DNA of 64,000 nucleotides from Candidatus Poribacteria bacterium (GCA_963665235.2 CAXXLX010000001.1:3872001-3936000); one strand, 5' to 3'; positions 21,584-64,000 are shown, numbered from the stretch's first letter. Notes: generated by a model from the sequence alone, not told the origin. Made by a program: numbers and translations.

Positions 21584-21892
21584 ACCTAAGTTGCCACATA
21601 GTAGCATAATCTTCCAGATTGTGCATATTTGTGTGCAAATTGGAAGTGAACGGGACAAATTAGCTAATTATCACGCGAGTTTGAAAAAAGTTTTGACCTA
21701 GAGCGTTCTCTGGTAGTTTTAGCAAAAAACGGCACAAACTAGGAAGTTTATGCTACAATTATACCGCTTTTTTCGCGGTGAAAAAGGTTTAGAGCAAACG
21801 GATATTTATTATCAAGCTCACGTTAATTATCAGCATATTTTCATTATAGAAGGTGTTTCCAGGTCTAAAAACTTATAAGTAGCAACTTGGGT
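21584..21892 (+). mobile_element. MITE-like family B (copy 3) with nested family C element
   Basis: B ends ACCTAAGTTGC...GCAACTTGGGT with 7-bp target duplication TACTTTA; interrupted at ~21673-21821 by ACGCGAGTTTG...CAAGCTCACGT flanked by a TAATTATC duplication. Confidence 0.8.
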
Positions 21893-24800: not shown

Positions 24801-27800
24801 TACCGAGTTTAGTGTAAATATCAAGCAATTGTTCATAGATTCTTTCGCGTTCGTAGCTATCAGAAGTCATATCAAGTGCCTTTTCATAGGCGGTGCTTGC
24901 CTCGGTGAGTTTTCTCTGATTTCGGAAAGTGTCTGCGCGTGCCTTTTGCATATCAAACGTAAGCGCGCCTTCATTCTCCGCCTTCTGTCCTGTCTCTTCT
25001 GGATTTTCCTGATTGTCGGAAAGTTCTAGAATTTCCCGTTGAATCTTCTCACGTTCATATTCTTGTCCAGTGAAACGTAGCGCCTCTTGGAACGCCTTTT
25101 TGGCAGAATCCTTATCCTTTTTTCGGAGATGCAGTGCAGCCAATTCACGATAACGTTCCACGTTCCCGGGGGCAAGTTCGATTAATTTTTGGTAGGTAGC
25201 GATTGCTTCATCTATCCTGTTATCATCCGCATAGAGTTTTGCTTTGCGGAGGTAATTGCTAGCATTGTCAGCGTCGCGGTTGATGTATTGTTGCGCGATT
25301 TCAAGTGCCTTCTCAATTTTACCAGCTTTTTGATAAGTACGAACAAGTCCATCCTGAAACTTTGTATTGCCTGCATCTTCGGAGAGCAGCGCCTCCCAAG
25401 TAGCAACTGCTTTATCGTCCTGATTTTGCGTTGTGTAAAGCGTAGCAAGTTGCGCGCGAGATTCGAAGTCTTCAGGCATCACCTTTTCTAGATGTGTATA
25501 GATGAGTAAAGCTTCTTGTGTATCACCACGCTGTGCGAAATCCTTTGCCAATGTCCGCAACGTACCAATGTCCATATTTTCTATTTTATCTTTTAGTTGG
25601 ACTGGACTGGAAACATTTGCGCGTCGCTTTTTAATAGCGACCAACTGTTCCTCCGCCTCTCTGCGATGATAGGATACAACTGAAAGATCATTAACGACTT
25701 TAGTCAGAAGGGGTTCAGCGTCTTCCCACATTTGGTTATGCATGTAGATTGATGCGAAATTCATATATTCAATGAAGTCGCCTCTCCCGGAACGAAATCT
25801 GAGTCTTGCCATCTTTCGGTATGCATCTTGCGCTTTCTCCTTTTCACCTTTTAGTGCATAGCTCATTCCGAGTCTATAATAGATATCCCATGCTCCTTCG
25901 GATTTTTGCACAATTTTCTCAAGGATTTGAAATTCCCGTTCTCGTCCCCCCGCGAGCCGATATGCCTCCGCCAAATTGCGGAGTTGTCCTATATTAAATG
26001 CGTCAGCATCAAGCAGTTGGTCCGTATGTTCATCTGCGCCTTTCAGGTCATTCGCTGCAATTTTCATTTTAGCAACGAAATAACGTAAGTTTTGATCTGT
26101 CGGGTTTTCTGCAAGTTTGGCTTCATATTCCTTGATGAATTGGTCCAATTCACCGTATAATTTATAGAAACGGGTCAACATTTCTAGGGTCGTTTCCTGT
26201 GAATATGCTTCCTCGTCAGTTTCTAGGAGGTCCCGCAACATCCGGATAGCTTTCTCATATTCACCCATGGCGGCGTAGGCATCTGCTAATTCGTGATAAT
26301 AGTAAGTCTGACTTGTCGGTTGTGCTTCGATGAGTTTTTCATAGATTTCGATAACAGCGTTGTGATTGTTTATGTCCTTAAGCTCCCTCGCCACATCTCG
26401 TGCAAGTTCGTTACTGAAATCATATCCGACAGATGGCATAATCAGCTCTTTGGATAGGGCGATAAGTTCGTCAACCTTTTCTGCCTTAAAGAAGCTTTCA
26501 ATTGCATCCCAGGTATCGTAACCGAGTGAATTTGGGTTATCCTTCAGCAGTTTGAGGTATTGTGGGACAGCCTCTTCATATTTTCCTCCCCGATACAACA
26601 TCTCCGCGTAACGTTTACGTGTAGTACTGTCTGTAGGTCTTAATGAGAGTGCGGTCTTGAATGCTTCTGATGCCTTGTCAATTTTGTCTTTACCTTCATA
26701 GAAAGCCGCCAAATTCATAAACGCCTTGTGTGAGTTGGGATTCTTTTCTGTAGCTGCTATTAATAACGTCTCCCGTTCTTGGGTAGATTTTGATTGGTTC
26801 GTTAGATGAGTTGCCTGCTGCCGTTTCCAAATAGAGAGCGTTTGTCCGTATCGGTCGCGTTGATTTGCGAATCGTAGGGCGCGTTCAGCCATCCGCGCGG
26901 CACCCTGGCCTCTCCCGAGTTCTTCTAAAAGGCGGCTTAAATCCATAAGAAAATCAGCATCTCGTATCCCCATCGCTAGGTGCATCGCTTTATTCATAAT
27001 AGCAGTCGCATGTTGCGTATACCCCGCACTTTGCAGCTGTTTCGAAAAGGTATAGAGTTCACGCGCGCTAGTTGGCGAATTCAGAAGTTTACCTATTAAA
27101 TCCCGAACAGCGACAGTATTCCCTGTCTGTAATGCCAATTTTAGGGTCAGGTCATAGTATTGACGGCGATTTCGTGGGTCAGCTACGGCAAGTTCCTCAA
27201 GTAATTGGAGCGTGCCAGCATGTTGTCCCGTTTGAATGGCGATAAACACAGTGCTGAGTTTGATCGAGAGGTCATGCGGAAATTCTTTCTGTAACGGGAC
27301 AAGGACTTCTTGCGATTTTTCGCGCTCCCCATTCCACCAATAGCAGTAGCTAAGGGCTAATCCTGAGAAGATTCGGTTTCGTCCTACCGCCGCATCAAAC
27401 GTAGTCCGCAACTTAGCGTATAAAACCTCAGGTTGATTTTTCAGCCACAATTGCCGAGAAAAATATTGCAGATACCGAAACCTACTCCCCTCGTAATAGA
27501 CAGTTGTTGTAGGAAAGATAGTCTGAAGAGATGCTCTGCTGGAAGAGAACGAACTTGTTGGTAGGAATGCTGTCCGTCGCGTGTTTGTGATTTGAGGTTG
27601 TGTTTTCTCACAGTAAGTCCAGAAGAGCTCAATCGCCTCGTCATACTGTTCCAAATTAAGGTATGCATCGGTAACCTTATCATAGAGCGAGCGATACTTC
27701 GCCTGTTGTGGTTGTGTTGGAATAGGCAACTTATCAATGATTCGCACAGCAACGTCAGTTTTCTTCATCAGTACAAGCGTCTCAATAAGTGCGTCTACGG

Positions 27801-30800
27801 TGTTAAGGTCCATCAACTTTATATCTTCAAATTCACCAATCAATTTTTCTGCTGCGTCCTTTTGTCCCTCACGATACCGTTTTTTGATATATTGGAACGT
27901 ATACCAAAGGCGTGTGTCTTGTGTTAACCCCGGGAGGCTATTCAGATATTTTTCTAACGTTTCAGAAGGTAGGTTTTTCTGAATTGCCCCATTTAATCGG
28001 ACCTCTTGGTATGTAAAATCGTTTGGAGATGCAGCAATCAATTGCTCAATCGTCCTATCTATTTTCTGGGTGTTCCCGGTCAAGGTATAGATTTGTGTCA
28101 AGATTTCAAGCGTTTTAATGTCCTTTGGGTTGGTTTCGAGATAGGTTTCGTACTGCTGAATAAATTCATTGAGTTTACCGTGTTGCTGAGCGATTGTGCT
28201 CAAATGCACGAGCGCGCCTGCCTGCGCCTCCTCAAAACTTTTTGGGAGCCAGCCATGGACGTTTTGTCCGAGATAGGATTCACCTTGAATCTCCCAGATT
28301 AGATCTAGCGCGAGTTCAAATTTGTTGGGGTCAATGCCGGGAGGTTTAGTTTGCGTTGCTGTTATGTGTCTACTACTCGCTTCCGGTTTCGGCATCGATA
28401 GGATTCGCTGGAAATGGGTCCGGGCGCGTTCGAATTCGCGCATACCCACCAACAGCGTCCCTACTTTGTAGTGTGCAATATGCGCATCTGCCCCTGAAAT
28501 TTTATCCGCTGCGCGGTCAATAACAGAAAGTGCCTCATCTAGGTGTCCATGCTGGATTAGCAGTACCGTCAGTTTTATCTCCGCGTCAAACGGCTGGTTT
28601 TTTGCATGGAGTAGCTTTGTCCAGGCTTGAATAGCTTCCTGCTCGCGTCCTGCATCAAACAAAAGTTCCCCGATTCGGCGTTGATGACTTGGGTCCGGGT
28701 GTACTGTGACGAGTCGTTGTTGGTATGTCAGCGCGTCTTGGTTATCGCCGAGGTCAAGGCTAATGTTCACGAGTTGTTCCAAGAGGTCAGGATTTTTGCG
28801 TTCTCTATCTAATGCCCGTGCAAGTTGGAAGCGTGCATTCTGCAAGTCTCCCTCCATCCGGTAAAGTTCAGCAAGTGCTAAGATAGGTGCAACGCCGCCG
28901 GTGTTGGATTTTGCCAGCTGCTTCAGTTTATTCTCAAACTCCGCACGCCGGCCTAGGTCGTAATATGCTTCGGAAAGCGGTTTGACAAAAACGAGTTTAT
29001 CGTTGACGGTATCACTCAATTCCCAACATCGCCAATATTGTGCAATTGCCTGTCGCGGTTTACCTGCAAGTTTGTAAGTCGCTGCCAACTCCTTACGGAT
29101 ATCAATTGCTTCCGGCTGTAAACGGAGTGCCTGTTTGAAATTATCTACGGCACTCTCATAATTTTCGGACTGTTTACCGATTTCCGCGAGCAGCTGATAC
29201 CCTTCAGGATTGCGTGGACTATGGGCTATCACCTGCTTTGCTGTAGCTGTAGCCTTTGTGAAGTCCATAACGTCTATATGCGACCGCGCAATATTGGTAT
29301 AGTATTCCCGGGCATTCGCGCTGTCAACTTGAATAAGATGCGTATAGATAGCATTCGCCTCATCTCGCTGGTTCTGCTTTGTATACACCGCTGCTAGCCA
29401 TCGATTGATAATTACATCGTCAGGTTGAAGTGCCTTTGCCTTCAAAATGATTTCAAGTGCGTAAGTCCTATTGCCCAGCTTGAGGTACATCTTTGCGAGC
29501 CGTTTCTGCTGCGTGAATATGTCCGCAGGTGTCAGGCCCGATTTTTCTAGTTCAGCTTCCACTGTTTCTATTTTGGAACGTAGGGTGCCTTGTCGTCGAT
29601 AGAGTTCAATCCGCTGGTTATCCATCTCTTCAGCAAAGAAGGCGTTCGGTGCAAGTTTTGCTGCTTCGGTAAATTCTGTTAGTGCTGCATCGAAATCCCC
29701 ATTTTTCATAAGCTGTTTCGCCAACGTCTCACGATATCCATAGACATCGGGCATCAATTCAACAGCCTTGCGGCTCGCAGCAATTGCCTCGGTGTGGAAA
29801 TTTTTCGCATTGAGGAGTTTTGCCAACCGGGCGTAATTCTCAGCGATTTCCTTGTCGCCCTCGACCATCCTATTCCATGTTTCAATCGCTTTTTCGCGAC
29901 TGCCTTGGCGAAGGTAGAATTCGCCGAAATATGCAATATAGTCCAGATTATCGGGTGATAGTGATAGCACCTTTTGGTATGCCGCAATTGCATCCGCTAT
30001 CCATTCATTTCCGGTGTAGATTTCAGCGAGCAGGAGATGGGTGCTTTCATTTTCCGGGTCGCGCGCAAGCATTCGCTGATATGTAGCCCGGGCTTTGGCT
30101 TCGTCCTCCACCTGTAGATACAATTCACCAAGTTCGCGGTAAATACCGAAATCGTCCGGGGTTTGTTCAGAAAGCACTTCGTATTCGGCTGCTGCGTCGG
30201 TGAACTTTTCAGCGTTGCGAAGCGCAGCGATAAGGTTTAAACGTAGAGTCGCGTCTGTCGGGGCAAGTTCTAGACCCTTCCGATATATATCTATTCCCTT
30301 TTCAAGCTGCTGATTTTCGACGTAAGCGGCTGCCAGCAAACCCATAAGTTCCGGCTCATTCGGTATGGTTTCAAGTTTTCGCTGGTAATACGCAATTAAG
30401 CCTTGCCAATTATTATCGGCAGCAAAAATGCCGATGATGCGGTGTTGTAAATCTTTCCGCAGCCAATTGCCGGGGGCAGTCAATGCAAGGGCGGTATCGT
30501 AGCTTTGAATAGCGTTTTGATAATCGCCTTTTGCCTCATAGATATTCCCAATTTCTCGCTGACTCAAGCAGACACGGTAAGGGTCATCCGCTTTGTGCCG
30601 AATAATTGCTTCATGTTGTGCAATTGCCTGCTCGTACAATTCCTGCTCTCGGAAAAGTGCAGCGAGTTCAATACGTGCAAAGATGTCTTGTGTATCTAGT
30701 TCAGCAATTTTGTGCCATGCTTGAATCGCTTCATCGACCCTGTCTCGACGGAAATATGCATGTCCAAGTGCCTTGTATATTGCTGTTAATTCTTCGAGGG

Positions 30801-31278
30801 GCACATCCTGTTTTTGTTCCGATAACGCTGCTGCCTGTTTCAAAGCACGGATGGCATTTTCATGCTGGTACAGTATTGCGGACATCTGTCCGAGGGCAAA
30901 GTGCGGATAATAATCGTTCGGGGCAAGTTCAACGGCGCGTTGATACGCAGAAATAGCTGAGGCATCCTGACCGAGCCGTTTGTAGATATGCCCCAAGGTA
31001 AGTTGAACGTTCGGGGCATCCGGTTTCGCTGCCGCCTCCGCTTGATAATCCGCCACCATTGCGTCTAAACCTGCCCCTTCCAGATAGAATTGATACAGCC
31101 GTTCAAACGTATTCCCCTCGCGCGGTTTGCGATTCAGCATCTGTTTATAGCGGTCGATGATTTTTGCATCGCTCGTTTCGTCTTGCGCGACGACTATGGA
31201 GGTTATCCACAAGCTAAGGCTTATGAAAATAAGACACAGAAAGTCCGCTGCAAACCGTTTTTTTTCAAATATAAACAT
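21892..31278 (-). CDS. Giant (3128 aa) secreted TPR-repeat protein with LamG and C-terminal beta-sandwich domains
   Basis: Signal peptide; dozens of TPR motifs (A..AY.KA.EL.P); LamG domain near residue 2470; same C-terminal domain as 19349..21532. Confidence 0.9.
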   Translation of the reverse strand: MFIFEKKRFAADFLCLIFISLSLWITSIVVAQDETSDAKIIDRYKQMLNRKPREGNTFERLYQFYLEGAGLDAMVADYQAEAAAKPDAPNVQLTLGHIYKRLGQDASAISAYQRAVELAPNDYYPHFALGQMSAILYQHENAIRALKQAAALSEQKQDVPLEELTAIYKALGHAYFRRDRVDEAIQAWHKIAELDTQDIFARIELAALFREQELYEQAIAQHEAIIRHKADDPYRVCLSQREIGNIYEAKGDYQNAIQSYDTALALTAPGNWLRKDLQHRIIGIFAADNNWQGLIAYYQRKLETIPNEPELMGLLAAAYVENQQLEKGIDIYRKGLELAPTDATLRLNLIAALRNAEKFTDAAAEYEVLSEQTPDDFGIYRELGELYLQVEDEAKARATYQRMLARDPENESTHLLLAEIYTGNEWIADAIAAYQKVLSLSPDNLDYIAYFGEFYLRQGSREKAIETWNRMVEGDKEIAENYARLAKLLNAKNFHTEAIAASRKAVELMPDVYGYRETLAKQLMKNGDFDAALTEFTEAAKLAPNAFFAEEMDNQRIELYRRQGTLRSKIETVEAELEKSGLTPADIFTQQKRLAKMYLKLGNRTYALEIILKAKALQPDDVIINRWLAAVYTKQNQRDEANAIYTHLIQVDSANAREYYTNIARSHIDVMDFTKATATAKQVIAHSPRNPEGYQLLAEIGKQSENYESAVDNFKQALRLQPEAIDIRKELAATYKLAGKPRQAIAQYWRCWELSDTVNDKLVFVKPLSEAYYDLGRRAEFENKLKQLAKSNTGGVAPILALAELYRMEGDLQNARFQLARALDRERKNPDLLEQLVNISLDLGDNQDALTYQQRLVTVHPDPSHQRRIGELLFDAGREQEAIQAWTKLLHAKNQPFDAEIKLTVLLIQHGHLDEALSVIDRAADKISGADAHIAHYKVGTLLVGMREFERARTHFQRILSMPKPEASSRHITATQTKPPGIDPNKFELALDLIWEIQGESYLGQNVHGWLPKSFEEAQAGALVHLSTIAQQHGKLNEFIQQYETYLETNPKDIKTLEILTQIYTLTGNTQKIDRTIEQLIAASPNDFTYQEVRLNGAIQKNLPSETLEKYLNSLPGLTQDTRLWYTFQYIKKRYREGQKDAAEKLIGEFEDIKLMDLNTVDALIETLVLMKKTDVAVRIIDKLPIPTQPQQAKYRSLYDKVTDAYLNLEQYDEAIELFWTYCEKTQPQITNTRRTAFLPTSSFSSSRASLQTIFPTTTVYYEGSRFRYLQYFSRQLWLKNQPEVLYAKLRTTFDAAVGRNRIFSGLALSYCYWWNGEREKSQEVLVPLQKEFPHDLSIKLSTVFIAIQTGQHAGTLQLLEELAVADPRNRRQYYDLTLKLALQTGNTVAVRDLIGKLLNSPTSARELYTFSKQLQSAGYTQHATAIMNKAMHLAMGIRDADFLMDLSRLLEELGRGQGAARMAERALRFANQRDRYGQTLSIWKRQQATHLTNQSKSTQERETLLIAATEKNPNSHKAFMNLAAFYEGKDKIDKASEAFKTALSLRPTDSTTRKRYAEMLYRGGKYEEAVPQYLKLLKDNPNSLGYDTWDAIESFFKAEKVDELIALSKELIMPSVGYDFSNELARDVARELKDINNHNAVIEIYEKLIEAQPTSQTYYYHELADAYAAMGEYEKAIRMLRDLLETDEEAYSQETTLEMLTRFYKLYGELDQFIKEYEAKLAENPTDQNLRYFVAKMKIAANDLKGADEHTDQLLDADAFNIGQLRNLAEAYRLAGGREREFQILEKIVQKSEGAWDIYYRLGMSYALKGEKEKAQDAYRKMARLRFRSGRGDFIEYMNFASIYMHNQMWEDAEPLLTKVVNDLSVVSYHRREAEEQLVAIKKRRANVSSPVQLKDKIENMDIGTLRTLAKDFAQRGDTQEALLIYTHLEKVMPEDFESRAQLATLYTTQNQDDKAVATWEALLSEDAGNTKFQDGLVRTYQKAGKIEKALEIAQQYINRDADNASNYLRKAKLYADDNRIDEAIATYQKLIELAPGNVERYRELAALHLRKKDKDSAKKAFQEALRFTGQEYEREKIQREILELSDNQENPEETGQKAENEGALTFDMQKARADTFRNQRKLTEASTAYEKALDMTSDSYERERIYEQLLDIYTKLGNDEAAIKTHDELAFSVSISNSAELARNRLINAYDKENKLETLKSIFNARLENEPKDIINDMEMLAEIYKRANDHGKAAEMYKAISKLQPDNVLSYYNAAAAYNRDGQSELANEMLNRGESALSVSHRKGSSSLLEELGDVCYNGKLYDPAIKFADAAIAENVDMLIYRTGSPEKSAYQLLAKSLYAAKRYEEAVYAYQQVENMARYSWDREEARKRIESASRLGNLYEKWIPKLLKKVEENPNDPDARLALAQTYEKVNKIDETIAQYQKLSELQPDTAQWQQKLGELYQTGTVQQHPTGEILENTALQLDGNRSFVEVDNTDTLRNITQQVTVSLWMKPTAFPNRYTPIIFKGDELTSDFSHRSYILYLREDGKVQIASSPDGRGQRSYYSDTGTVQLNTWYHIAGVIDAKRDSIKLFINGIEVGSTTLSGEQSFYESQFPLRIGWTHEEERPTQSPFVGFMDEVRIWNIARTDAEIRANMNTELKGDEPGLVAYWKLDGETEGVVLDVSANKNHGRLIGDAKFAPYTRPIFETTRSVQLTKAAAAYEKAIEIDPTSYQLYRSLAEVYAKQDRSSDAEAVYLRALDAPLTQRNRDDAIQAIWAFYANTEKQDKGVALLEELREKIENSARLYELLGDAYEEAGDADKAEVANTQWFRLRRREINQRQDARTYHDFATQLLRRGVYPEVALEYAERAAQSSSNSSYVVTLAHAYLANDQHENALVQYERGLNTDMFGFVERDIFVRLAKIGRGTKDKHGYIDMLKKLIEAMSGKATALLNAQIVLAEFYQLNDMHEEAAAQIQKTGFVTENEWLHLGPFDNTDGIGYNTAYIPENLTQIDMTAKYAAGNGYVSWQKVNDDVLNGYIELGKNLDWRVAYAFTTITSPDERQVVFRFDSDDQGKLYLNGEKVFTHTQTYAAGIDKYAVPVTLKKGKNSVLVKVCEQTGGWGFYLRITDQNGNPFTDLKLVK

Positions 31279-54771: not shown

Positions 54772-55877
54772 AACACCTAAACCTCCGCATGTATGCAATG
54801 GTGTTTGCCCTGCTCGGTGTCTGGGTAATTTTCAGCCTACTGACTGGTGGCACCTTCCTCAGCACTCGGAACCTTTCCAACCTCTCTCGTCAAGCGGTGG
54901 AGACAGCTATTCTCGCCGTTGGCATGACGCTTGTCATCGTTTCCGCGAACATTGACCTATCCGTAGGCTACGGTGCTGGGTTGCTCGGCGCGATCACAGC
55001 GATTCTGCACGTTTGGTGGGGGCAACCGATTATTTTAACACTCCTTGCTGTTATCTGTGTCGGTGTCCTGATAGGCGCGCTGCACGGTTATCTGGTAGCG
55101 TATCAGCGAATTCCGGCGTTTATCGTCACACTGGGCGGCTTTTTGGCATACCGCGGGTTGATGTTAGCCTTTACTAAAGGCGAGACTATCCTGCTTCCCG
55201 ATAATTGGTTGAAAGCTCTCGGCGGGGCTTACCTGCCACACACACTCGGATGGGGTATTCTAATTGTTGCGCTTGGTGTAAGTGGATACCTGTTTTTCAA
55301 TCAATTTACAAAACCGCAGTCGGAACGTACCTACAAAACGTATCTCCCCACAATTTTCAAAATAATTGGGACGTGGGGGGGACTTATCGCGTTCGTCACA
55401 GTGATGAATTCTCACAAAGGGATTCCGATGCCGGTATGTGTTCTGTCTGGGTTGGTATTTCTATTTCATTTTGTAGCGAATCACACCCGTTTTGGGCGTT
55501 ATGTCTATGCTGTCGGTGGTAACGCGGAGGCGGCGTATCTCTCCGGGGTCAATGTCCGCAGCGTTACACTACGGGTTTTTGCGACGATGGGGGCACTCAT
55601 GGCAATTGCTGGCGTTGTCTTGACCGCACGTGTCGGGAGTGCTAGTCCGGAAGCAGGACGTTTGCTGGAATTAGATGCGATTGCTGCATGTGTTATCGGC
55701 GGTGCCAGTTTAATGGGTGGACGCGGTAGCATTTTCGGGGCCGTTTTGGGTGCGTTCGTTATGGAAAGTCTGGATAACGGGATGAGCCTAGCAAATATGG
55801 ACGCTGCATGGCAGGATATTATCAAAGGGATTGTCCTTGTCGCCGCTGTCGGGTTTGACATGGCATCACGGAAATAA
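54768..55877 (+). CDS. Sugar ABC transporter permease (XylH/GguB-like)
   Basis: IDLSVG, IPAFIVTLGG, FGRYVYAVGGN, ELDAIAACVIGG. Confidence 0.9.
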   Translation: MKHLNLRMYAMVFALLGVWVIFSLLTGGTFLSTRNLSNLSRQAVETAILAVGMTLVIVSANIDLSVGYGAGLLGAITAILHVWWGQPIILTLLAVICVGVLIGALHGYLVAYQRIPAFIVTLGGFLAYRGLMLAFTKGETILLPDNWLKALGGAYLPHTLGWGILIVALGVSGYLFFNQFTKPQSERTYKTYLPTIFKIIGTWGGLIAFVTVMNSHKGIPMPVCVLSGLVFLFHFVANHTRFGRYVYAVGGNAEAAYLSGVNVRSVTLRVFATMGALMAIAGVVLTARVGSASPEAGRLLELDAIAACVIGGASLMGGRGSIFGAVLGAFVMESLDNGMSLANMDAAWQDIIKGIVLVAAVGFDMASRK

Positions 55878-56049
55878 AATCCCTCAGGTTGCGCCGCCCT
55901 CGATTGGAATTTTGTCCCCCCCCACAGTCGACTTCCTCAAAAAACAGAATTTTCCGACATGTCTCCATTTTTTTAAACCGTTTGCCGAAAATTTCCCCTC
56001 TTTTAACCAAACTCTAATTGGGAATTTACTTATGCATTACGATTTAGTT

Positions 56050-59000
56050 ATGCCCAATGACCTGACAGATGCGGAGCTCGTTCGACGGGTGCAAGCCCGA
56101 GATGAGGCAGCTTTTGCAGAATTGGTAGCCCGTTATAGTCCACGGATTTGGAGTACCGTTGTTGAGAATTCAAGGCAACACCGGGATGCTGAAGAAATTC
56201 TGATGGACATCTGGCAGGTAGTGTGGGAAAACATCAACGGACTGCGGAAAGTGGAAAGTTTTGGCGCGTGGCTGAGACGCATTACGTTTACTGCTTGCAA
56301 CAGATATTACAGCACCGGAACACACGGACGCGAAATTGTTCTAGACTACGAAGATTTGGCCTTTCAAATCGATAGAGATGCTGAACAACGTTTTCACGAT
56401 GAAAGACTTCGAGCTGAGGCAAGAGAGGCTGTGCATCACCTGCCACAGCGAGTGCGGCCCGTTGGAATATTATATTACCTTGAATTGTGGAGTGTCAAAG
56501 AGGTTGCAGCTGAACTTGGCCTAGCGATAGGCACGGTTAAGACGAGGCTGAGTGAAATCAGACGACTGCTCCGTAAAGAATTTGGGGTTGAAGAGGGGAA
56601 AATTATGTCACATAAACAGGAAAAACCTGCAAGTTTGCCAAGTAAATTAAAGGTAATCGGAGTCGGTGGTGCCGGTTGCAATGTGGTCAACGCTATGATT
56701 GAAGCCGGGGCATCGGGCATAGAATTTTGTGTGGTGGATACGGACAAGGCGGCACTTAGTGCCTGTGAGAGAGCAACGCAGGTGCAAATCGGTGTTCGCA
56801 CCACCCTTGGAAGTGGCACGGATGGCATTCTCGAACTTGGCAGACGCGCCGCTGAGGAAAACATGGAGGCACTCCGCGCAATTGTTGCTGATGCAAAGAT
56901 GGTCTTCGTTATAGCGGGTATGGGGGGCGGGACTGGCACTTACGTCGCCCCGCTGATAGCATCTCTATCGCGAGAACAGGGAACATTGACAGCCTGCTTT
57001 GTGACATGTCCGTTCGATGCTGAAGGCGAACGTTGTGCCGAACAAGCAGCACTCGGTTTACAGCAACTGCAAACTGCTTCTCGATATCGGGCAGATGCAG
57101 TCATTGTTGTGCGAAACCAACAGGTTATTGAAATGAGTGACCAGCAATTATCTATGCACGAGGCGTGTCAGAAAACCGATGAAATCCTGCTTTACGGCAT
57201 TCGAAGCATTTCGGATATCATCGTAGAGGCTGGGGAAATCAACGTTGGCTTTCCTGACATTCAGAAGATGTTGCGCGACCAGGGGAACGTGCTAATGGGG
57301 ATAGGAAAAGCAAAAGGTGAAAATCGGGCGAAAATCGCTGCCGAGAACGCCATCGCCTCACCCCTACTCGGAGACGCTAGCCTCGTCGGAGATAAGGTGA
57401 TGATTGTTAATATCACCGCATCCCCAGAGTTTGCAATACACGAATTAGAGCAGGCCATGAAAGTCATCAGGAAAACAGCAGCGGACGCACAACCTATTTT
57501 CGGATTGGTCTACAAGGATGAATTGCAACATAGCGGTGAAGTGGTGGTGACTATAATTGCCAATGGCTCCGATTTACCAAAGGAAATCGCTTCGCCAAGT
57601 ATGGATATGGTAGACGATGCATCGCCAGGGCAAGGTGCTATTATCTTACCATCAAACAGTTCAGACTTTGTGCATCTACACAATCACAGCGAATATAGTC
57701 TACTGGATGGCGCGTGCCGGATACCGGATATGGTCCAGTGGGCAGTTGAGCACAGCTCGCCTGCTGTTGCCATTACAGACCACGGCAACATGTTCGGTGC
57801 ACGGGAATTTTACAACGCCACGAAAGAAGCCGGTGTGAACCCAATTGTCGGATGTGAGGTGTATGTTGAAGCTGGGAATGGGCAATCTGAACCGTCCCAT
57901 CTCACCTTGCTGGCAGAGGACGCTATAGGTTACGCGAATCTCTTAAAATTGACATCGTTCGGATGGACGCAAGGTTTCCGTAGAAAACCGTGTATCACTC
58001 TGGAAATCTTACGGGAATATCACGACGGTATTATTGCCCTGACAGGGTGTATCTATGGGATAGTGCCGCAGCTAATCTGTTCGGATAGAAAAGATGAGGC
58101 ACTCCGAAACTTTTTGACGTTGAAAGACATCATGGGAGAGAATAACCTGTATGTTGAGATACAGAATCACTATCTCGATACGGAGTTGGCAGCGTATCCT
58201 GTGATGCTCGAATTGGCGAAAGAACACGACCTTCCTATCGTAGGAACGAACGATTGTCACTACCTCCGAAAATCTGACCACCGCATGCACGATGTGCTTT
58301 GCTGTATCCGGACAAGGAAAACTGTCAATGACGCTGAACGCCTAAGGTTTGACAATCATTTCTATTTCAAAAATGTTGACGAAATGCAAGCGGCACTTAA
58401 AACGTATCCTCCTGAGGCGATTAGCAATACCGTTGAAATTGCGAATCGATGTAACCTACAACTGGAGGACAACAAAAGTGTGATGCCGATATTTGAGGTG
58501 CCGGCGGGACATACACACGACACTTATCTGAAAACGTTGTCTTATGAGGGGTTACGTCAAAAATATGGAGGGCATCTCGCTGAACCGATTCGCACCCGAC
58601 TGGAATATGAACTGGATATCATCGAACAGATTGGGCACGCTAACTATTTCCTGCTTGTAGCAGATTATGCCACCTACGCGAACAGCCAGGGATATCCCTT
58701 CTCTGCGCGCGGTTCGGCGGCAGGCAGCCTTGTGCTTTACGCCCTCGGTATCATCAATTTTAATCCGATGAATTACGGATGTCTGTTTGAAAGGTTTCTA
58801 AACCTTGATAGGCTTACCACGCCAGATATTGACATAGATTTCCCCGGACATGCTCGTCAAGACATGGTGGATTACCTTGCGAAAAAGTACGGACAGGACT
58901 CTGTCGGTCGTATTGTTACCTTTACTACGTTGGGGGCGAGGTCAGCTATCAAAGATGTCGGACGGGCCCTTGAAATTCCGCTTGATTCCATCGAAAAGTT

Positions 59001-60291
59001 GACAGACCTAATTCCACACATTCCGGGAATCACGCTTGAGGCAGTTTTGAAAGAGGTTCCAGAATTTCAGACGTTTGCTGCACTCCCTGAAAATAGAGAG
59101 TTGATAGAAATTAGTCAAGCGGTAGAGGGGACGAAACGGCATGTCTCCTGTCATAATTCTGCTGTTGTGATTTCAAACGGGCCCCTTACCGATTACGTCC
59201 CACTTTTCAAAGATAAACATGGACAGGTCGCGGTACAGCTTGAACGAAACGCAGTTGAAGATGTCGGTGTCGTCAAATTGGATATCCTCGGTTTGTGTAG
59301 CCTCTCCAGCATCTCTACCTGTCTCAGGACGATTCAGGAAAACCGTGGCCGCAGGATTGCACTTGAAGATATTCCGCTTGACGACAAAAAAACCTATTCA
59401 CTCATCAGTGAAGGCTTGCTGGCTGGGCTTTTTCAACTTGAAACCTCTCCCGACATGCAGCAGGTTGTTACCGAGCTCAAAGCGGAAAATTTTGAGGAAT
59501 TTTCGGCAATCCCGGCACTCTATCGACCCGGTCCCATTGAAAATGGTGACCTGCAGCGGTTCATTGCAAGGAAAAATGGCATCGCCCCGACAAGGTACGC
59601 GCATCCATCGCTTGAAAATGTGCTTAAAAGCACTTTCGGTGTCTGTATCTATCAGGAACAGGTGATGAAGATAGCGTGTGAGATAGCAGGTTTCACGCTC
59701 GGCGAGGCGGATATCCTCCGTTCTGCAATGGGCAAAAAAGATGAAATGCTTATTGCGGGGCAGCGACAGAAATTCGTTGAAGGCGCGATGAAAAATGGCA
59801 TCGCCGAAGCGGAGGCGGAAGAGGTCTTTGAATATCTGAAATCTGTCGGGAGATATGCCTTCAACAAATCGCACAGTGTCACGTATTCTCTGTTAAGCTA
59901 TCGGATGGCGTATCTGAAAACGCACTACCCGCACGAATTTATGGCGGCGATGCTGACAAGTGAAGCAGCATATACCGAGAAAATCACCCGCTACCGTGCT
60001 GAATGTTCTGAACTGGCTGACTTCCTCGGCGTAGAAATTAACCTCTTACCCCTTGATATCAACCACAGTGAGAAGCATTTCACAGTGGATGGCAACGATA
60101 TTCGTTGTGGCCTTCTTGCTGTTGCGGTTTTGGGGGATGAAGCGATAGATTCAATTATAGCAGAGAGACATCAGCGAGGGGTGTTCACCTCACTCCAAAA
60201 TTTCCGAGAACGCGTGGATACGGAACACGTGAATGCGTACGCTATTGAAAGCCTTGTGGCAAGCGGCGCATTCAAAACGTTTCCGATGTAA
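56050..60291 (+). CDS. Fusion protein: ECF sigma factor + FtsZ-like domain + DNA polymerase III alpha (DnaE, C-terminally truncated)
   Basis: Sigma regions 2 and 4 (56050-56590); KVIGVGGAGCN and AGMGGGTGT FtsZ domain (56644-57567); FVHLHNHSEYSLLDG PHP, RGSAAGS, PDIDIDF, KLDILGL, YQEQVM, FNKSH (57667-60291); start 56032 or 56050. Confidence 0.9.
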   Translation: MPNDLTDAELVRRVQARDEAAFAELVARYSPRIWSTVVENSRQHRDAEEILMDIWQVVWENINGLRKVESFGAWLRRITFTACNRYYSTGTHGREIVLDYEDLAFQIDRDAEQRFHDERLRAEAREAVHHLPQRVRPVGILYYLELWSVKEVAAELGLAIGTVKTRLSEIRRLLRKEFGVEEGKIMSHKQEKPASLPSKLKVIGVGGAGCNVVNAMIEAGASGIEFCVVDTDKAALSACERATQVQIGVRTTLGSGTDGILELGRRAAEENMEALRAIVADAKMVFVIAGMGGGTGTYVAPLIASLSREQGTLTACFVTCPFDAEGERCAEQAALGLQQLQTASRYRADAVIVVRNQQVIEMSDQQLSMHEACQKTDEILLYGIRSISDIIVEAGEINVGFPDIQKMLRDQGNVLMGIGKAKGENRAKIAAENAIASPLLGDASLVGDKVMIVNITASPEFAIHELEQAMKVIRKTAADAQPIFGLVYKDELQHSGEVVVTIIANGSDLPKEIASPSMDMVDDASPGQGAIILPSNSSDFVHLHNHSEYSLLDGACRIPDMVQWAVEHSSPAVAITDHGNMFGAREFYNATKEAGVNPIVGCEVYVEAGNGQSEPSHLTLLAEDAIGYANLLKLTSFGWTQGFRRKPCITLEILREYHDGIIALTGCIYGIVPQLICSDRKDEALRNFLTLKDIMGENNLYVEIQNHYLDTELAAYPVMLELAKEHDLPIVGTNDCHYLRKSDHRMHDVLCCIRTRKTVNDAERLRFDNHFYFKNVDEMQAALKTYPPEAISNTVEIANRCNLQLEDNKSVMPIFEVPAGHTHDTYLKTLSYEGLRQKYGGHLAEPIRTRLEYELDIIEQIGHANYFLLVADYATYANSQGYPFSARGSAAGSLVLYALGIINFNPMNYGCLFERFLNLDRLTTPDIDIDFPGHARQDMVDYLAKKYGQDSVGRIVTFTTLGARSAIKDVGRALEIPLDSIEKLTDLIPHIPGITLEAVLKEVPEFQTFAALPENRELIEISQAVEGTKRHVSCHNSAVVISNGPLTDYVPLFKDKHGQVAVQLERNAVEDVGVVKLDILGLCSLSSISTCLRTIQENRGRRIALEDIPLDDKKTYSLISEGLLAGLFQLETSPDMQQVVTELKAENFEEFSAIPALYRPGPIENGDLQRFIARKNGIAPTRYAHPSLENVLKSTFGVCIYQEQVMKIACEIAGFTLGEADILRSAMGKKDEMLIAGQRQKFVEGAMKNGIAEAEAEEVFEYLKSVGRYAFNKSHSVTYSLLSYRMAYLKTHYPHEFMAAMLTSEAAYTEKITRYRAECSELADFLGVEINLLPLDINHSEKHFTVDGNDIRCGLLAVAVLGDEAIDSIIAERHQRGVFTSLQNFRERVDTEHVNAYAIESLVASGAFKTFPM

Positions 60292-60506
60292 ACGTTAGCG
60301 TGTGTGAAAAAAGAGCTCAACAAACAGAACTATATAGTGTAAAATTACTAAACTTTGGACAATTTTAGGGTGTGTCCAGTTTTTGTCAAAGGGATAGGTG
60401 GAAGATTGGAAGGGGGGAAGGCTGGAAGACTGGAAGCAGGGTGTGTAAAGTTTTTGTACGTCTGCGATATTTTTTCTGAAGAAAAATCAAACCATTGGCA
60501 ACTAAT

Positions 60507-60744
60507 ACCATTTTTATTAATTATTCTATCATTACCGGTTGTTAGAAATGAAACGGAGAACGGCACAAACTGGAAGTTTATGCTACGATAAAACGCACAA
60601 ACTGGAAGTTTATGCTACGATAAAACGCACAAACTGGAAGTTTATGCTACGATAAAACGCACAAACTGGAAGTTTATGCTACGATAAAACGCACAAACTG
60701 GAAGTTTATGCTACTACAAAGAGACATTTTCAATTAGAAATGGT
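60507..60744 (+). mobile_element. MITE-like family A (copy 3) with 5 x 32-bp REP units
   Basis: Same termini as the other copies; unit GCACAAACTGGAAGTTTATGCTACGATAAAAC at 60563, 60595, 60627, 60659, 60691. Confidence 0.75.
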
Positions 60745-60826
60745 ATAACATAACAGAGAACCAAAACATTTTTCGGAGGAACGCGGCACGGTTTGCAACT
60801 TACCTGACCAGACATCGATAGCGAAA

Positions 60827-61395
60827 GTGTCACATTTCTTTTTTTTTGAAAATCGTCCAAGGGGGTGTAAACGGCGGACAAACATAGATGGGGCGGGCGT
60901 TTGGGCACATTCAGCACCGAGAACCGGATGTTACACTTTGTGTCGAAAGTGTAACTTATGCACACAAATGGCACAAAAAATAGGAGGCAGAACCATCCGA
61001 AGAGTCCGAAGAACTGATACCCGAAAACCGTCAGTTGAAATGACACATTTTGTTTTTTTGTGTTGCGAAAAAGATAGGGGTAAATCGCTTGAAAACATAG
61101 ACGTGGCGTGAGTTTGTGCGACTGCAGCACCGAGAAGCGAATGTTACACTTTGTGTCAAAAGTGTAACTTATGCACCGGAGCGGCAGAGAAAAATAGCAG
61201 ACACATCGGTAAGAAAAGTAGGCAGAACTGATAAACGAAAACCGGTGGTCGAAATGTCACACTTCATTTTTTTTGTGTTGTGAAAAAGACGGGTCGAAAC
61301 CGCTTGAAAACATAGACGTGGCGTGAGTTTGTGCGACTGCAGCACCGAGAAGCGAATGTTACACTTTGTGTCAAAAGTGTAACTTATGCACCGGT
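60827..61395. repeat. ~215-bp degenerate tandem repeat (~2.6 units) with palindromic core
   Basis: GCACCGAGAA..GATGTTACACTTTGTGTC(G/A)AAAGTGTAACTTATGCAC near 60914, 61127 and 61342. Confidence 0.8.
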
Positions 61396-61750
61396 TTTGT
61401 ACAAAAACTTTACACACCCTCTCATCCACTATCGCTTGACACATCGACGCATTTTCCTTGACTTCACAACTTTCTAATGATATACTAAACATTGGTATCC
61501 TCTCTTTTTTCACAAGTTTATTATTTACTAAACTTTGGACAATTTTAGGGTGTGTAAAGTCAAAGGCTCTTTATAGATGGAAGGGTGGAAGAGGGTGTGG
61601 TCAAAGGGATAGATGGAAGGGTGGAAGAGTGGAAGGGTGGATTTCGCTTGTGTTGTCTGAATCACGGAAGGCACGGAGAACAGAGAGAACGCGGAATGGA
61701 AGGTGCGGAACAATCAAAGGTTTGTGATTATAGGTTAGGGTGTTGTTCTT

Positions 61751-62223
61751 TCTATAAAGATACCGCCCCGCTGGGGCTATTTTGTGGTGTGGTTGCGTTT
61801 TCTATAAAGATACCGCCCCGCTGGGGCTATGCTTTTGCACATTGGTGTCTCTTTTCTACTGTTTGTGTTTGTGTGAGCAACAGTGAGAAAAATCAGAAAT
61901 GCTTTGAAAATCGGGCATCAGGCTCACGGATATTGTCCAAACTATAGTATTATTTAGAAAGGATACCATTTTTTTATTTTCCTGACAACAAGGCTTTGTA
62001 CAAACAGTCCGATGTCTTATGTAGGAGTGTGCTTCGCACGCGACTGGCACCCCTCGACCTGTCTGGAATCCCGACATTCATCTTATGTAGAAACCTGCTT
62101 CGCACGCGACCTCCTAACGTAACTTGAGGGGAACAGTCCGCTCTTAGCCCCAGCGGGGCGGTATCTTTATAGAAAACCCAAACAAAACACAAAATAGCCC
62201 CAGCGGGGCGATATGTTTATAGA
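61751..62223. repeat. REP-like units of the 4521 family, two forward and two inverted
   Basis: TCTATAAAGATACCGCCCCGCTGGGGCTA at ~61751 and ~61801; inverted copies at ~62145 and ~62194. Confidence 0.75.
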
Positions 62224-62577
62224 TGTTAGCCAAACCCCGCTTCTTTCCGCCTCCGCCGCGTCCTCCGCACCTTCCTTGATTCAGCAAAAAATGCGTAGAT
62301 GTTAGCAACAAACCTCTTTTTTCCGCGTCCGCTGTGTCCTCTGTGTCCACCGCACTTTGCGGCATCCTCGCCCAAATGCGACGGGCATTCTGACAAAAAA
62401 AGCACAACATCCCTTAATCACAAAACCTTGACGCATACACACCTTAAAATCCGCGTAATCCGCGATAATCCGCGATTTGCGGCGTATTCGCCCAAATGCG
62501 CCGTGCATTCTGACAACACACGCGAAATCCACCCTGCCCCGCTTCCACCCTTCCACCCTTCCACTTATCATAGTGCA

Positions 62578-62741
62578 ACGTGAGTTTGATAATAAATGTC
62601 GGTTTGCACTAACCCCTATAAAGGTATCGTCCCGATGGGACTAAGATTTGGGGCGTGTCCCTCTGCTTCTATAAAGATAGCGTTCCTAAGGAGCGAGCTG
62701 GTTGCCGGAATACTAAGGGAAAACTTTTTCCAAACTCACGT
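62578..62741. mobile_element. MITE-like family C element
   Basis: Terminal inverted repeats ACGTGAGTTTG...CAAACTCACGT as in the nested element at ~21673; contains REP-like units. Confidence 0.65.
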
Positions 62742-62780
62742 TAGTACAAAAACTTTACACACTCATTCCGAAAAAAGAGG

Positions 62781-62998
62781 TTGACAAATAATTCTGCATA
62801 GTGTAAACTTTAAAATGAATTCTGTGAGCGAAAGCGGACCGAAAAACCATAGACCCTCACAGAAGGGGTTGAACCCTTATAGACTGTGGCTTGAAATGTC
62901 CATCTACCTATTTTTGGCAATTTCTGTTGCGGGAAAAAGTGCCGCTCACAGAAATGCAGGCTTTCATGCTATGTACAGTAAGGGTTGAAAACGCGGGC
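62781..62998 (+). promoter_or_regulatory. CRISPR leader with putative promoter
   Basis: TTGACA-17 bp-TAAACT (62781-62809); inverted motif TCTGTGAGCG (62821) / CGCTCACAGA (62943); abuts first repeat; the variant repeat lies at the far end of the array. Confidence 0.65.
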
Positions 62999-63788
62999 GT
63001 TGAAACGAAAAGATGCCCGATTACGAGATTGAAACGATACCGTTTGACTTTGGCGAGAATCCGATTCTTATTGATGGTTGAAACGAAAAGATGCCCGATT
63101 ACGAGATTGAAACACTGACAGTCACCATGGACGTAGCTGGCAGTCTCGGGTGTTGAAACGAAAAGATGCCCGATTACGAGATTGAAACTTCCGTCATATT
63201 GTTGCCCCGAAAAGTTTCTCGGTTAGTTGAAACGAAAAGATGCCCGATTACGAGATTGAAACTGAAAACATAGCATCAGACCGAAGTGAACAAGGTTTCC
63301 GTTGAAACGAAAAGATGCCCGATTACGAGATTGAAACGAGGAGACAGAGTTGTCCGGCCCGCCCGATGTGTTGAAGTTGAAACGAAAAGATGCCCGATTA
63401 CGAGATTGAAACCCCGTGTAAGCCGTCTATGGTGGATTTAGACGCGATTGAGTTGAAACGAAAAGATGCCCGATTACGAGATTGAAACGGTACCTAATTC
63501 CAATCCGATGGTGGAAAGCATCAAAGTTGAAACGAAAAGATGCCCGATTACGAGATTGAAACCCATCGGTTCGTTGGTAACAATCGGAGACAAGGTCAGT
63601 TGAAACGAAAAGATGCCCGATTACGAGATTGAAACGATAAATCTCCTCGTGGTCAGCTTTCTCACCTGTTTCCTCCCAGTTGAAACGAAAAGATGCCCGA
63701 TTACGAGATTGAAACCAGCAGTTGTCAAAATGGTTGACGGGGCGGAAAAGTGTTGAAACGAAAAGATGCTCGATTACGAGATTGAAAC
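62999..63788 (+). CRISPR. CRISPR array, 11 repeats / 10 spacers
   Basis: 37-bp repeat GTTGAAACGAAAAGATGCCCGATTACGAGATTGAAAC at 62999, 63077, 63152, 63226, 63301, 63376, 63452, 63526, 63599, 63679, 63752 (last has one C>T); unique 36-43 bp spacers. Confidence 0.97.
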
Positions 63789-63795
63789 AAATATT

Positions 63796-64000
63796 TTAGG
63801 GTGGAGAAACAGTATACGTAAACCAACATCGCGTCCCATCGGTTTTCAAAATAATCGCCCCGACCTGATCGGTCCGTAACTGAACAGCATTCCGTTTCCG
63901 ATACCGGGCCACGACCTCCGGATGCGGCAATCGATACCGATTCCTTTCACCAAGTGAAAAGATAGCATACCGGGGTTGAACAGCATCTAAAAACTCGGCA
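63796..64000 (-). CDS. 3' end of ComEC/Rec2-like competence protein (MBL-fold C-terminus), partial
   Basis: Own translation of minus strand: ...EFLDAVQPRYAIFSLGERNRYRLPHPEVVARY...RTDQVGAI...*, matching the ComEC C-terminal pattern P..A..S.G..N.Y.HP...RTD..G.I. Confidence 0.75.
   Translation of the reverse strand, partial: AEFLDAVQPRYAIFSLGERNRYRLPHPEVVARYRKRNAVQLRTDQVGAIILKTDGTRCWFTYTVSPP

Follow-up and report, generated by a model that had tools for sequence, protein, structure and literature searches.

An ECF-type sigma factor gene of Candidatus Poribacteria extended in frame by a tail-less FtsZ paralogue and a DNA polymerase III alpha core

Sigma factors of the extracytoplasmic function (ECF) type that carry regulatory extensions are known, including the WD40-bearing ECF57 proteins, and the extensions described in the main text of PMC8999054 act by conformational change, partner binding or proteolysis. 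The gene described here is located on a 64,000-nt window (the whole stretch of DNA that was analysed) of a Candidatus Poribacteria genome (GCA_963665235.2 CAXXLX010000001.1:3872001-3936000), which belongs to a group of sponge-associated, uncultivated organisms. It is, almost certainly, a single gene encoding an ECF-type sigma factor with a C-terminal extension that consists of a tail-less FtsZ paralogue and the catalytic core of the DNA polymerase III (Pol III) alpha subunit, DnaE. Like the ECF57-type proteins as that main text presents them, the predicted protein has a core of sigma regions 2 and 4, no adjacent anti-sigma gene, a long C-terminal extension in the same polypeptide and a probable self-activated promoter, and WD40 propellers are found on sister genes of the same sigma subfamily; unlike them, it carries an extension of approximately 1,230 residues made of housekeeping enzymes (FtsZ and the Pol III alpha core, with DnaN in relatives), the catalytic residues of which are conserved. 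It probably both works like an ECF sigma factor with a C-terminal extension and is one.

The other close precedents are phage systems, considered here as the relevant parts of three papers describe them. In late transcription of phage T4, the sliding clamp gp45, which is loaded in replication, activates the sigma-like protein gp55, with gp33 (PMC2988020, PMC7892883), and MuC of phage Mu has been linked with the host beta clamp (PMC12867686). As in these accounts, the genes reported here physically tie a promoter-specificity factor to a replisome component, and relatives of the window genome join an ECF sigma factor directly to DnaN; unlike in these accounts, the tie is a covalent gene fusion in a cellular genome in place of a non-covalent phage link, and the partner in the window gene is a polymerase core plus FtsZ, without a clamp module. 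The gp55/gp33/gp45 system of T4 looks like the closest mechanistic precedent, of which the sigma-DnaN fusions would be the covalent version, and a bold second reading of the family would be a cellular, covalent version of the replication-coupled transcription of T4. FtsZ, tubulin and DNA polymerase are not mentioned in the main texts of PMC8999054 and of the ECF re-classification (PMC7826278), and no published fusion of a sigma factor with FtsZ, DnaE or DnaN was found in the literature, although the supplementary tables of the re-classification might mention such proteins. A first-pass annotation of the window, made from the DNA alone, had stated that it knew of no described triple fusion of this kind, and the literature searched agrees; the fused extension is of a type without a described counterpart in these texts.

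The gene occupies a stop-free frame at 55831-60291 (plus strand, 1486 codons), and orthologous open frames at the same locus in relatives encode 1349-1454 aa. An open frame of 1,486 codons in DNA of 48% G+C, conserved in frame across genera, is far beyond chance. Pfam domains are found along it, without overlap, in the order Sigma70_r2, Sigma70_r4_2, Tubulin, FtsZ_C, PHP, DNA_pol3_alpha, DNA_pol3_finger and HHH_6 (Table 1); the first-pass annotation had already read a single frame containing sigma regions 2 and 4, FtsZ, a linker of about 30 aa, and PHP and polymerase domains, and in this it was right. Its start, 56050, should be moved six codons 5': the start codon is likely the ATG at 56032 (MHYDL...), because the equivalent methionine begins 10/10 aligned orthologues directly 3' of a conserved TCTAATTGGGAA element. 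It did not mention that DnaE is truncated, that a putative internal ribosome-binding site and an ATG lie where sigma meets FtsZ, or that relatives have sister fusions with the beta clamp, all of which are described below.

That a chimeric assembly, or homopolymer indels, made one gene out of three adjacent ones has next to no probability left. The genome (5.3 Mb, 92.6% complete) consists of just 4 contigs, which may point to long reads as its source, and the sigma/FtsZ junction contains G runs and a Shine-Dalgarno (SD) sequence with ATG, like an ordinary gene start. Against an artefact, Logan contigs of four sequencing runs from three studies (P1-P3; contigs in all four cases), placed on 55900-60400, bridge both junctions: that of sigma and FtsZ in runs X5 of study P2 (record 18, 56352-56753) and X1 of study P1 (record 1, to 56649), and that of FtsZ and DnaE in runs X1 (record 3, 57523-57696) and X6 of study P3 (records 28 and 29, 57385-57696). 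No indel was found between 55917 and 60366 among the contigs of the four runs. The best-matching DNA run may be the sample of origin, X5 and X6 are from other studies, and the X6 records represent a diverged strain. The runs found to contain the stretch included none of RNA. The architecture is widespread as well: in a word-indexed search of 5.8 billion proteins from which the best 120 clusters were taken, 118 of these 120 have sigma region 4, Tubulin, PHP and DNA_pol3_alpha in one protein of 1200-1743 aa, the other two being an 829-aa truncated form and a sigma-DnaE protein, P0114. All source names given among the best 120 clusters are Candidatus Poribacteria, and the public labels of the fusion proteins, 'DNA polymerase III subunit alpha' or 'cell division protein FtsZ', hide the fusion architecture. 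The frame is held despite changes in linker length, in many assemblies and in the 57 genomes counted below. Chimeric assembly and frameshift are ruled out by the bridging contigs, the cluster architectures and the 57-genome count, and the two doubts that the first-pass annotation raised about the fusion, a chimeric junction and restriction to one assembly, are not borne out.

The N-terminal module belongs by family models to the ECF (group 4) sigma-70 factors, with 59.1 bits in TIGR02937 (sigma70-ECF; cut-off 42.9; residues 94-250) and 32.5 bits in Sigma70_r4_2 (cut-off 25.7); Sigma70_r2 scores 20.9 bits in the window copy, below the 24-bit cut-off, and 31-34 bits in relatives. No anti-sigma gene was seen among the neighbouring genes in the window. 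The sigma part looks functional because it has the lowest ratio of nonsynonymous to synonymous substitution (dN/dS) of the three modules and because conserved -35/-10-like blocks lie upstream. The FtsZ and DnaE modules fail, on defined features, the equivalog tests for their own families, whereas the sigma module is recognised by the ECF family models.

Like FtsZ (TIGR00065), the second module has the Tubulin GTPase and FtsZ_C domains and the G-box; unlike FtsZ, it falls below the equivalog cut-off (265.3-268.8 bits versus 295.2, the canonical copy on contig 2 scoring 386.6), has an altered T1 loop (GVGDAGGN in most homologues) and lacks the C-terminal tether peptide. It is 55% identical to the core of the genome's own FtsZ. 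The G-box, GGGTGT, is kept in the window copy and in 116-120 of 120 homologues at each position, as is the second Asp of the T7 loop (118/120). The first T7-loop Asp, present in 113/120 homologues, is Gly at codon 473 (57247-57249) of the window copy, and the full FtsZ fold of the first-pass annotation is present in its domains but not in this residue. The canonical FtsZ ends in ...WDIPTFLRV... (WDIPTFLRVKKGNNRRN), a C-terminal peptide that we take to be the binding site for the membrane tethers FtsA and ZipA. The paralogue is always fused, except for one stand-alone form in genus g5.

The third module resembles the Pol III alpha subunit (DnaE1) in its PHP, palm, thumb, fingers and helix-hairpin-helix (HhH) domains, its Asp triad and its PHP motifs (HLHNHSEYS, TDHGNMFG and GCEVY in the window copy), and differs from it in being fused behind sigma and FtsZ and in lacking the clamp-binding-like motif, the OB (oligonucleotide/oligosaccharide-binding) fold and the C-terminal (tau-binding) domain. 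In the DnaE model NF004226 its match spans positions 3-884 of 1146 (1001.5 bits versus a cut-off of 1002), and it ends approximately 27 residues before a clamp-motif-like site, QMNLF (911-915), of the genome's own 1173-aa DnaE, to which it is 70% identical over 877 aligned residues; the tRNA_anti-codon domain of the canonical copy is absent. The PHP and polymerase domains named by the first-pass annotation are there, but as a core fragment and not as a whole DnaE. Among crystal structures, this core aligns to residues 5-889 of 2hnh (910 aa) and 2hqa (917 aa), which represent a fragment of E. coli alpha that is an active polymerase. The residues of the Asp triad, D999, D1001 and D1151, are kept in 119, 115 and 119 of 120 homologues respectively, and the four PHP residues that were tallied (H615, H617, D650, E676) in 120-121 of 121 aligned sequences, query included. 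In ending early, with the rest absent from the polypeptide, the module is like the N-terminal half of the cyanobacterial split DnaE (NF007079), but it scores 594.5 bits versus a cut-off of 1525, no intein or second half lies downstream, and a separate full-length dnaE is present in the genome. A split gene or intein with the DnaE C-terminus downstream was ruled out, as 60292-62900 consists of repeats only, with no open reading frame (ORF) of more than 138 aa.

Table 1. Coordinates of the fusion gene, its modules and associated elements in the window, and of sister fusions in relatives. Residues are numbered as P0001, from the beginning of the open frame at 55831.
Feature	Position	Strand	Parts	Residues	Basis
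sigma-FtsZ-DnaE(core) gene	56032..60291	+	1419 codons + stop		open frame, Pfam, NCBIfam; orthologous frames
Promoter-like element	55965..56011	+	-35-like TTTTTTTAAACC (55968-55979), ~16 nt spacer, -10-like CCCTCTTTT (55995-56003)		conservation
TCTAATTGGGAATTT element, between promoter-like site and start codon	56013..56027	+			conserved just 5' of ATG in orthologues
ECF sigma module	56032..56604	+	sigma2 ~56122-56310; sigma4 ~56416-56571	Sigma70_r2 98-160; Sigma70_r4_2 196-247	Pfam and NCBIfam matches
Internal SD-like sequence and in-frame ATG, sigma/FtsZ junction	56591..56607	+	GAAGAGGGGA (56590-56599); ATG (56605-56607)		conservation
FtsZ paralogue module	56605..57567	+	Tubulin GTPase domain 56647-57138; FtsZ_C 57283-57567	Tubulin 273-436; FtsZ_C 485-579	Pfam
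Variable FtsZ/DnaE linker	57568..57666	+		about 580-612	poor conservation in alignment
Pol III alpha core	57667..60288	+	PHP 57673-58170; palm/thumb (DNA_pol3_alpha) 58525-59292	PHP 615-780; DNA_pol3_alpha 899-1154	Pfam, NCBIfam
Pol III alpha core, distal domains		+	fingers 59302-59799; HhH 60037-60282	DNA_pol3_finger 1158-1323; HHH_6 1403-1484	Pfam
sigma-DnaN class A	L094:304-2043 in G016	+	580 aa		
sigma-DnaN class B	L105:2122-3849 in G172	+			subfamily B sigma
DnaN-FtsZ	L071:1529-3610 in G006; L072:1569-3698 in G001	-	694 and 710 aa		domain matches

Upstream of the start codon, the -35-like and -10-like blocks of Table 1 were found in 10/10 aligned orthologues with the sigma-FtsZ-DnaE architecture and in most of the paralogues inspected that share the window gene's type of sigma factor, here called subfamily A (sigma-FtsZ, sigma-FtsZ N-domain, the sigma-DnaN of genome G016 and 6/9 sigma-WD40 loci). 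With few exceptions the subfamily A consensus is TTTTTTTAAACC, approximately 16-17 variable bases and CnCTCTTTA, with an information content of 1.6-1.7 bits per position in the blocks versus 0-0.9 in the spacer. In five relatives the pattern has 15 matches, versus 0 in a reversed control, and the extra matches are located upstream of another ECF-propeller gene, upstream of an ABC-2-like membrane protein, and at one likely chance site. In the window genome the exact pattern has 1 match and a looser pattern 11, mostly implausible; a 47-nt weight matrix built from 30 instances in relatives gave 49.0 bits for the gene's own site, 23.8 for the next best site of the genome and a peak of 18.3 in the reversed-genome control. 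The element looks like an ECF promoter with positive autoregulation. The TCTAATTGGGAATTT element 3' of it occurs two or three times in genus g6 and might serve as an operator or belong to the 5' leader. No Rfam family was found in 55000-64000.

The methionine at the sigma/FtsZ junction is kept in at least 95% of 121 aligned proteins, and its ATG is preceded by AGAGGGG, AAGGAG or AAGGGG at the proper distance. An SD core at -17..-5 accompanies 10/10 of the junction ATGs of sigma-FtsZ-DnaE genes versus 32/315 of the other in-frame ATGs, and the junction SD with ATG is found also in sigma-WD40 genes and in both kinds of sigma-DnaN genes, despite differing linker peptides; no such signal was found at the FtsZ/DnaE junction. 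This is probably a second translation start, from which free FtsZ-DnaE would be made. It could be the relic of an ancestral two-gene operon, but its use is favoured because the signal is conserved at the nucleotide level.

The best explanation of the gene, to which as a whole, mechanism included, we assign a probability of roughly 40%, is that of a self-activating one-component sigma factor, the extension of which couples it to the state of the replisome and divisome. The sigma module would drive its own conserved ECF-like promoter, with positive feedback as the result. The alpha core would not be a replicase, since, lacking its clamp-binding region, OB fold and C-terminal domain, it would be unable to bind the clamp or the clamp loader and to join the replisome in that role, and the FtsZ module could not be membrane-tethered, since the tail peptide is missing; with these parts gone, the extension would be left to act via what remains, namely nucleotide binding and head-to-tail contacts of FtsZ, and binding of DNA, primer termini or partners by alpha. 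By such partner binding of FtsZ and the alpha core, the extension would hold, place or release the sigma module, and transcription from the gene's own promoter would follow the state of replication and division. Free FtsZ-DnaE from the internal start might assemble together with the full-length protein's extension, or titrate it. The mechanism taken by itself is tentative, and its chances are somewhat short of even. A complex prediction for the sigma module versus the FtsZ module scored 0.00 and, having been made without controls, is evidence neither way.

Selection was estimated as pairwise Nei-Gojobori (NG86) dN/dS for the six closest pairs (dS 0.06-1.1). The ratio is 0.07-0.13 for sigma, 0.16-0.39 for the FtsZ module, 0.09-0.18 for the DnaE core, 0.16-0.23 for the DnaE tail and 0.19-1.47 for the FtsZ/DnaE linker, while the canonical genes in the same pairs have 0.04-0.07 (DnaE) and 0.02-0.06 (FtsZ). 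The DnaE core is evolving approximately 1.5-3 times faster than the canonical copy, and overall the modules are relaxed 1.5- to 8-fold compared with the canonical genes. All three modules are thus under purifying selection that is weaker than that on housekeeping genes, with FtsZ the least constrained; the ratio near 1 that the first-pass annotation had named among the signs against the fusion is not what the modules (0.07-0.39) have.

Several observations weigh against the coupling of the sigma factor to replisome and divisome state. Near-perfect conservation of the catalytic residues is the strongest of them, since docking or sensing alone would not require so much, and would favour an active polymerase as the payload. 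The FtsZ tree places sigma-FtsZ forms from the syntenic locus inside the group of triple fusions, and DnaE was lost at least 2-3 times; one sigma-FtsZ gene, in genome G003, ends ...FVHLHNHSEYSLLV, the stump of a PHP domain. In P0114, which is 93-95% identical to the window gene's protein, an in-frame deletion of residues 275-561 of the latter has removed the FtsZ module and left sigma-DnaE, the junction Met being changed to Val. The modules are thus individually dispensable. The window copy is without its first T7-loop Asp. The analogy with T4 covers the clamp fusions, not FtsZ. The 47-nt matrix found no second promoter target in the window genome, so no regulon is visible for which the coupling would be of use, and the promoter that the paralogues share may owe something to a common ancestry of their 5' regions. 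After every loss observed, the remaining parts are in frame with sigma.

These losses bring up a fusion tolerated in slow decay, in which only the sigma factor or the internally started product would matter and the rest would be kept by linkage and lost piecemeal. The repeated loss of DnaE with its one PHP remnant, the deletion of FtsZ in so near a relative as P0114, the missing T7 Asp, and the longer branches and raised dN/dS are what such decay would leave. However, dN/dS is far below 1 in every module, the catalytic residues are nearly invariant in 120 homologues, the frame is kept across linkers of variable length in 57 genomes, and all deletions observed are in frame; we consider slow decay improbable.

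Slightly less improbable, though still unlikely, is an RNA-polymerase-tethered DNA polymerase, in which sigma would dock a Pol III alpha core, active without the clamp, on RNA polymerase or at its promoter. Such an enzyme might carry out short-patch synthesis or repair where DNA is transcribed or open, or extend short promoter transcripts as primers, with FtsZ as a spacer or oligomeriser. The conserved Asp triad and PHP residues, the low dN/dS of the core, its match to the E. coli fragments, and the sigma-DnaE of P0114, still in frame after the loss of FtsZ, are all in keeping with this, as is the finding that the only recognisable promoter is the gene's own, so that sigma may have no regulon. 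It is without precedent, however, and it does not sit well with the several losses of DnaE from a locus where sigma-FtsZ persisted, with the absence of the DNA-binding HhH domain from about half of the homologues (the 1342-1376 aa length class), or with the non-enzymes, WD40 propellers or DnaN, that the same sigma subfamily carries.

The phylum was surveyed in 176 genomes, including that of the window, with frame length as a proxy for architecture and a Pfam check for the examples cited only. Sigma-FtsZ matches (E <= 1e-110) were found in 98/111 other genomes of family f1 and in 0/64 genomes of ten other families; by genus, they are present in 35/40 genomes of g3, 62/65 of g6 and 1/1 of g4, and absent from g2 (0/3) and g5 (0/2). 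By our own tally of the survey table, a frame of at least 1200 aa holds the match in 57/112 family genomes, the window genome included; frames of 554-700 aa hold it in 24 genomes (25 rows), and 4 further rows are cut or partial. Two proteins, P0110 (1743 aa) and that at G143:C1:2600055 (frame 1744 aa), are triple fusions with approximately 320 further C-terminal residues that have no Pfam match.

In the window genome, canonical ftsZ is located on contig 2 and a full-length dnaE on contig 1, 1.76 Mb from the fusion, and the fusion gene is therefore an extra copy, as the first-pass annotation had supposed. Quick maximum-likelihood trees (LG+G4, SH-aLRT being the only support measure) unite the DnaE parts of 11 fusions in a single clade (SH-aLRT 99) that falls within the family's canonical DnaE and has longer branches, and place every fused FtsZ paralogue in a single clade (SH-aLRT 99) separate from canonical FtsZ. 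Each module therefore appears to have arisen once, and both paralogues appear to derive from duplication within the Poribacteria family, with housekeeping copies kept elsewhere. The single clade rules out both gene conversion of the DnaE part by the resident dnaE of each genome and its repeated derivation from that gene. Extra full-length copies of DnaE are present in genomes G013, G017 and G019.

The ECF sigma factor, the FtsZ paralogue and two Pol III subunits occur within this one family in nearly every pairwise joining, and the lineage-specific set of fusions comprises sigma-FtsZ, sigma-FtsZ N-domain, sigma-FtsZ-DnaE, sigma-DnaE, sigma-DnaN, DnaN-FtsZ and sigma-WD40. Members of sigma subfamily A are 59-70% identical to each other, and their cargo in relatives includes WD40 double propellers and the FtsZ GTPase domain alone (412-425 aa, ending in helix H7 before the T7 loop). 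The suggestion of the first-pass annotation that FtsZ and DnaE serve as C-terminal extensions of the sigma factor fits this context, in which the same subfamily bears WD40 or DnaN extensions in relatives. It further proposed that the extension might sense GTP, Z-ring state or primer-template in a checkpoint role, or that the protein might be a repair polymerase targeted to promoters or the septum. Sigma-DnaN of class A has a subfamily A sigma factor and the window gene's type of promoter, and was found in 9 genomes of genus g6 (65-100% identity). Class B has a sigma factor of subfamily B, which shares 26-32% identity with A and in other fusions carries BNR or WD40 propellers; this class is listed for at least 27 genomes of g6, at 3-5 kb from the sigma-FtsZ N-domain gene. 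Sigma-DnaN thus appears to have formed twice independently. In genus g2, which is without sigma-FtsZ, a complete DnaN with three beta-clamp domains precedes the FtsZ paralogue, and this DnaN-FtsZ gene lies behind a sigma54-type promoter (TGGCAC-N5-TTGCA) and adjoins a sigma54-type activator. What this adds above all to the context of the window gene is that sigma/FtsZ/replisome fusions recur, and are under selection, in dozens of species.

Other members of these protein families were noted alongside. The window genome (G000) encodes about a dozen other ECF sigma factors in frames of 900-1065 aa, for example at L099:415-3468 (minus strand) and L101:286-2979 (minus strand); the two that were inspected have BNR/Sortilin-type or WD40 propellers. 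Genomes of g6 have 2-3 stand-alone DnaN paralogues each (371-375 aa), 55-68% identical to the DnaN of the class A fusion. At L081 (G016:C1:2418278-2421310), two promoter-like elements 164 nt apart precede sigma-DnaN, and the first of them is followed by a degraded-looking older sigma start and a degraded end of the ABC permease, an arrangement that suggests a cargo swap at the syntenic locus.

The frequency of the FtsZ paralogue, the commonest cargo of subfamily A after WD40 and one also joined to DnaN without sigma, is in favour of a cytoskeletal device for positioning DNA, in which the helix-turn-helix of sigma region 4 and a polymerising tubulin-like GTPase would move or anchor a DNA site or the replisome, a design with a likeness in plasmid TubZ/TubR. 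The T7 loop, which works only in a polymer, is moreover kept in 113/120 homologues. We nevertheless regard such a device as very improbable, because sigma factors generally need core RNA polymerase for DNA binding, the sigma-FtsZ N-domain paralogues stop short of the T7 loop and so could do no more than cap a filament, the window copy is itself without the first T7 Asp, and there is no repeated centromere-like site beyond 1-3 copies of TCTAATTGG.

The fusion locus is syntenic, always 3' of the same ABC permease. Upstream are genes for a TatD DNase and this permease, and downstream is repeat-rich non-coding DNA, so that the gene lies outside any dcw or replication cluster, as first annotated. 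The downstream region contains a 32-nt tandem repeat (60548-60720), a repeat of approximately 213 nt in three copies (60840-61394) and GGAAG-rich repeats, and a 5- to 10-fold rise in contig depth at 60340-60400, with many loose ends, indicates a dispersed repeat. At 62999-63794, 2.7 kb 3' of the fusion, is a CRISPR-like array of 11 copies of a 37-nt repeat (GTTGAAACGAAAAGATGCCCGATTACGAGATTGAAAC) with a spacing of 73-80 nt; the window stops at 64000, shortly past the array. Elsewhere in the window, a 3128-aa protein (21892-31278, minus strand) consists nearly entirely of TPR repeats, with one Laminin_G_3 domain.

The recurrence of FtsZ, DnaE and DnaN as cargo would be explained by a bait, or integrated-decoy, sensor, in which the fused FtsZ, alpha and clamp mimic the targets of phage proteins, toxins or antibiotics, and binding of an inhibitor switches the sigma factor and so a response. 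The cargo consists of extra copies of essential machines, repeatedly joined to two ECF subfamilies in one lineage; the parts that would tie it to the real machines (the FtsZ tail and the clamp-binding region of alpha) are missing; constraint is relaxed overall, but not at the ligand and active sites, which are retained; and in the window genome the CRISPR-like array is nearby. Extra copies of DnaN and DnaE serve as self-resistance genes in producers of griselimycin and nargenicin. However, no conserved defence or resistance genes adjoin the fusion, the downstream neighbours differ among genomes, no regulon is detectable with the promoter matrix in the window genome, and the locus is a fixed, syntenic chromosomal one and not a variable island. 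The WD40 paralogues are ill-suited as bait of a known target, and the proposal is purely inferential. We judge it unlikely, to about the same degree as the tethered polymerase; if true, bacteria would have a parallel to the integrated decoys found in plant immune receptors.

With a self-activating sigma factor coupled to replication and division state as the preferred explanation, the gene has several implications for Poribacteria. Transcription initiation, replication and division are usually taught as separate machines that talk via diffusible regulators, and here parts of all three are found in one polypeptide, in a fusion kept under selection in dozens of species and accompanied in the same lineage by sigma-clamp (twice), clamp-FtsZ and sigma-FtsZ as sister forms. 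If gene fusion is taken as a guide, the sigma factor, FtsZ and replisome parts would work together in Poribacteria. The range of sigma factor extensions is widened from small sensor domains to whole enzymes, and biochemistry is offered a Pol III core that would naturally do without the clamp, along with a tail-less FtsZ. The fusions also give a concrete way into the question of how gene expression in an uncultivated phylum of sponge associates might be coupled to the cell cycle, or how its cell-cycle machines might be guarded.

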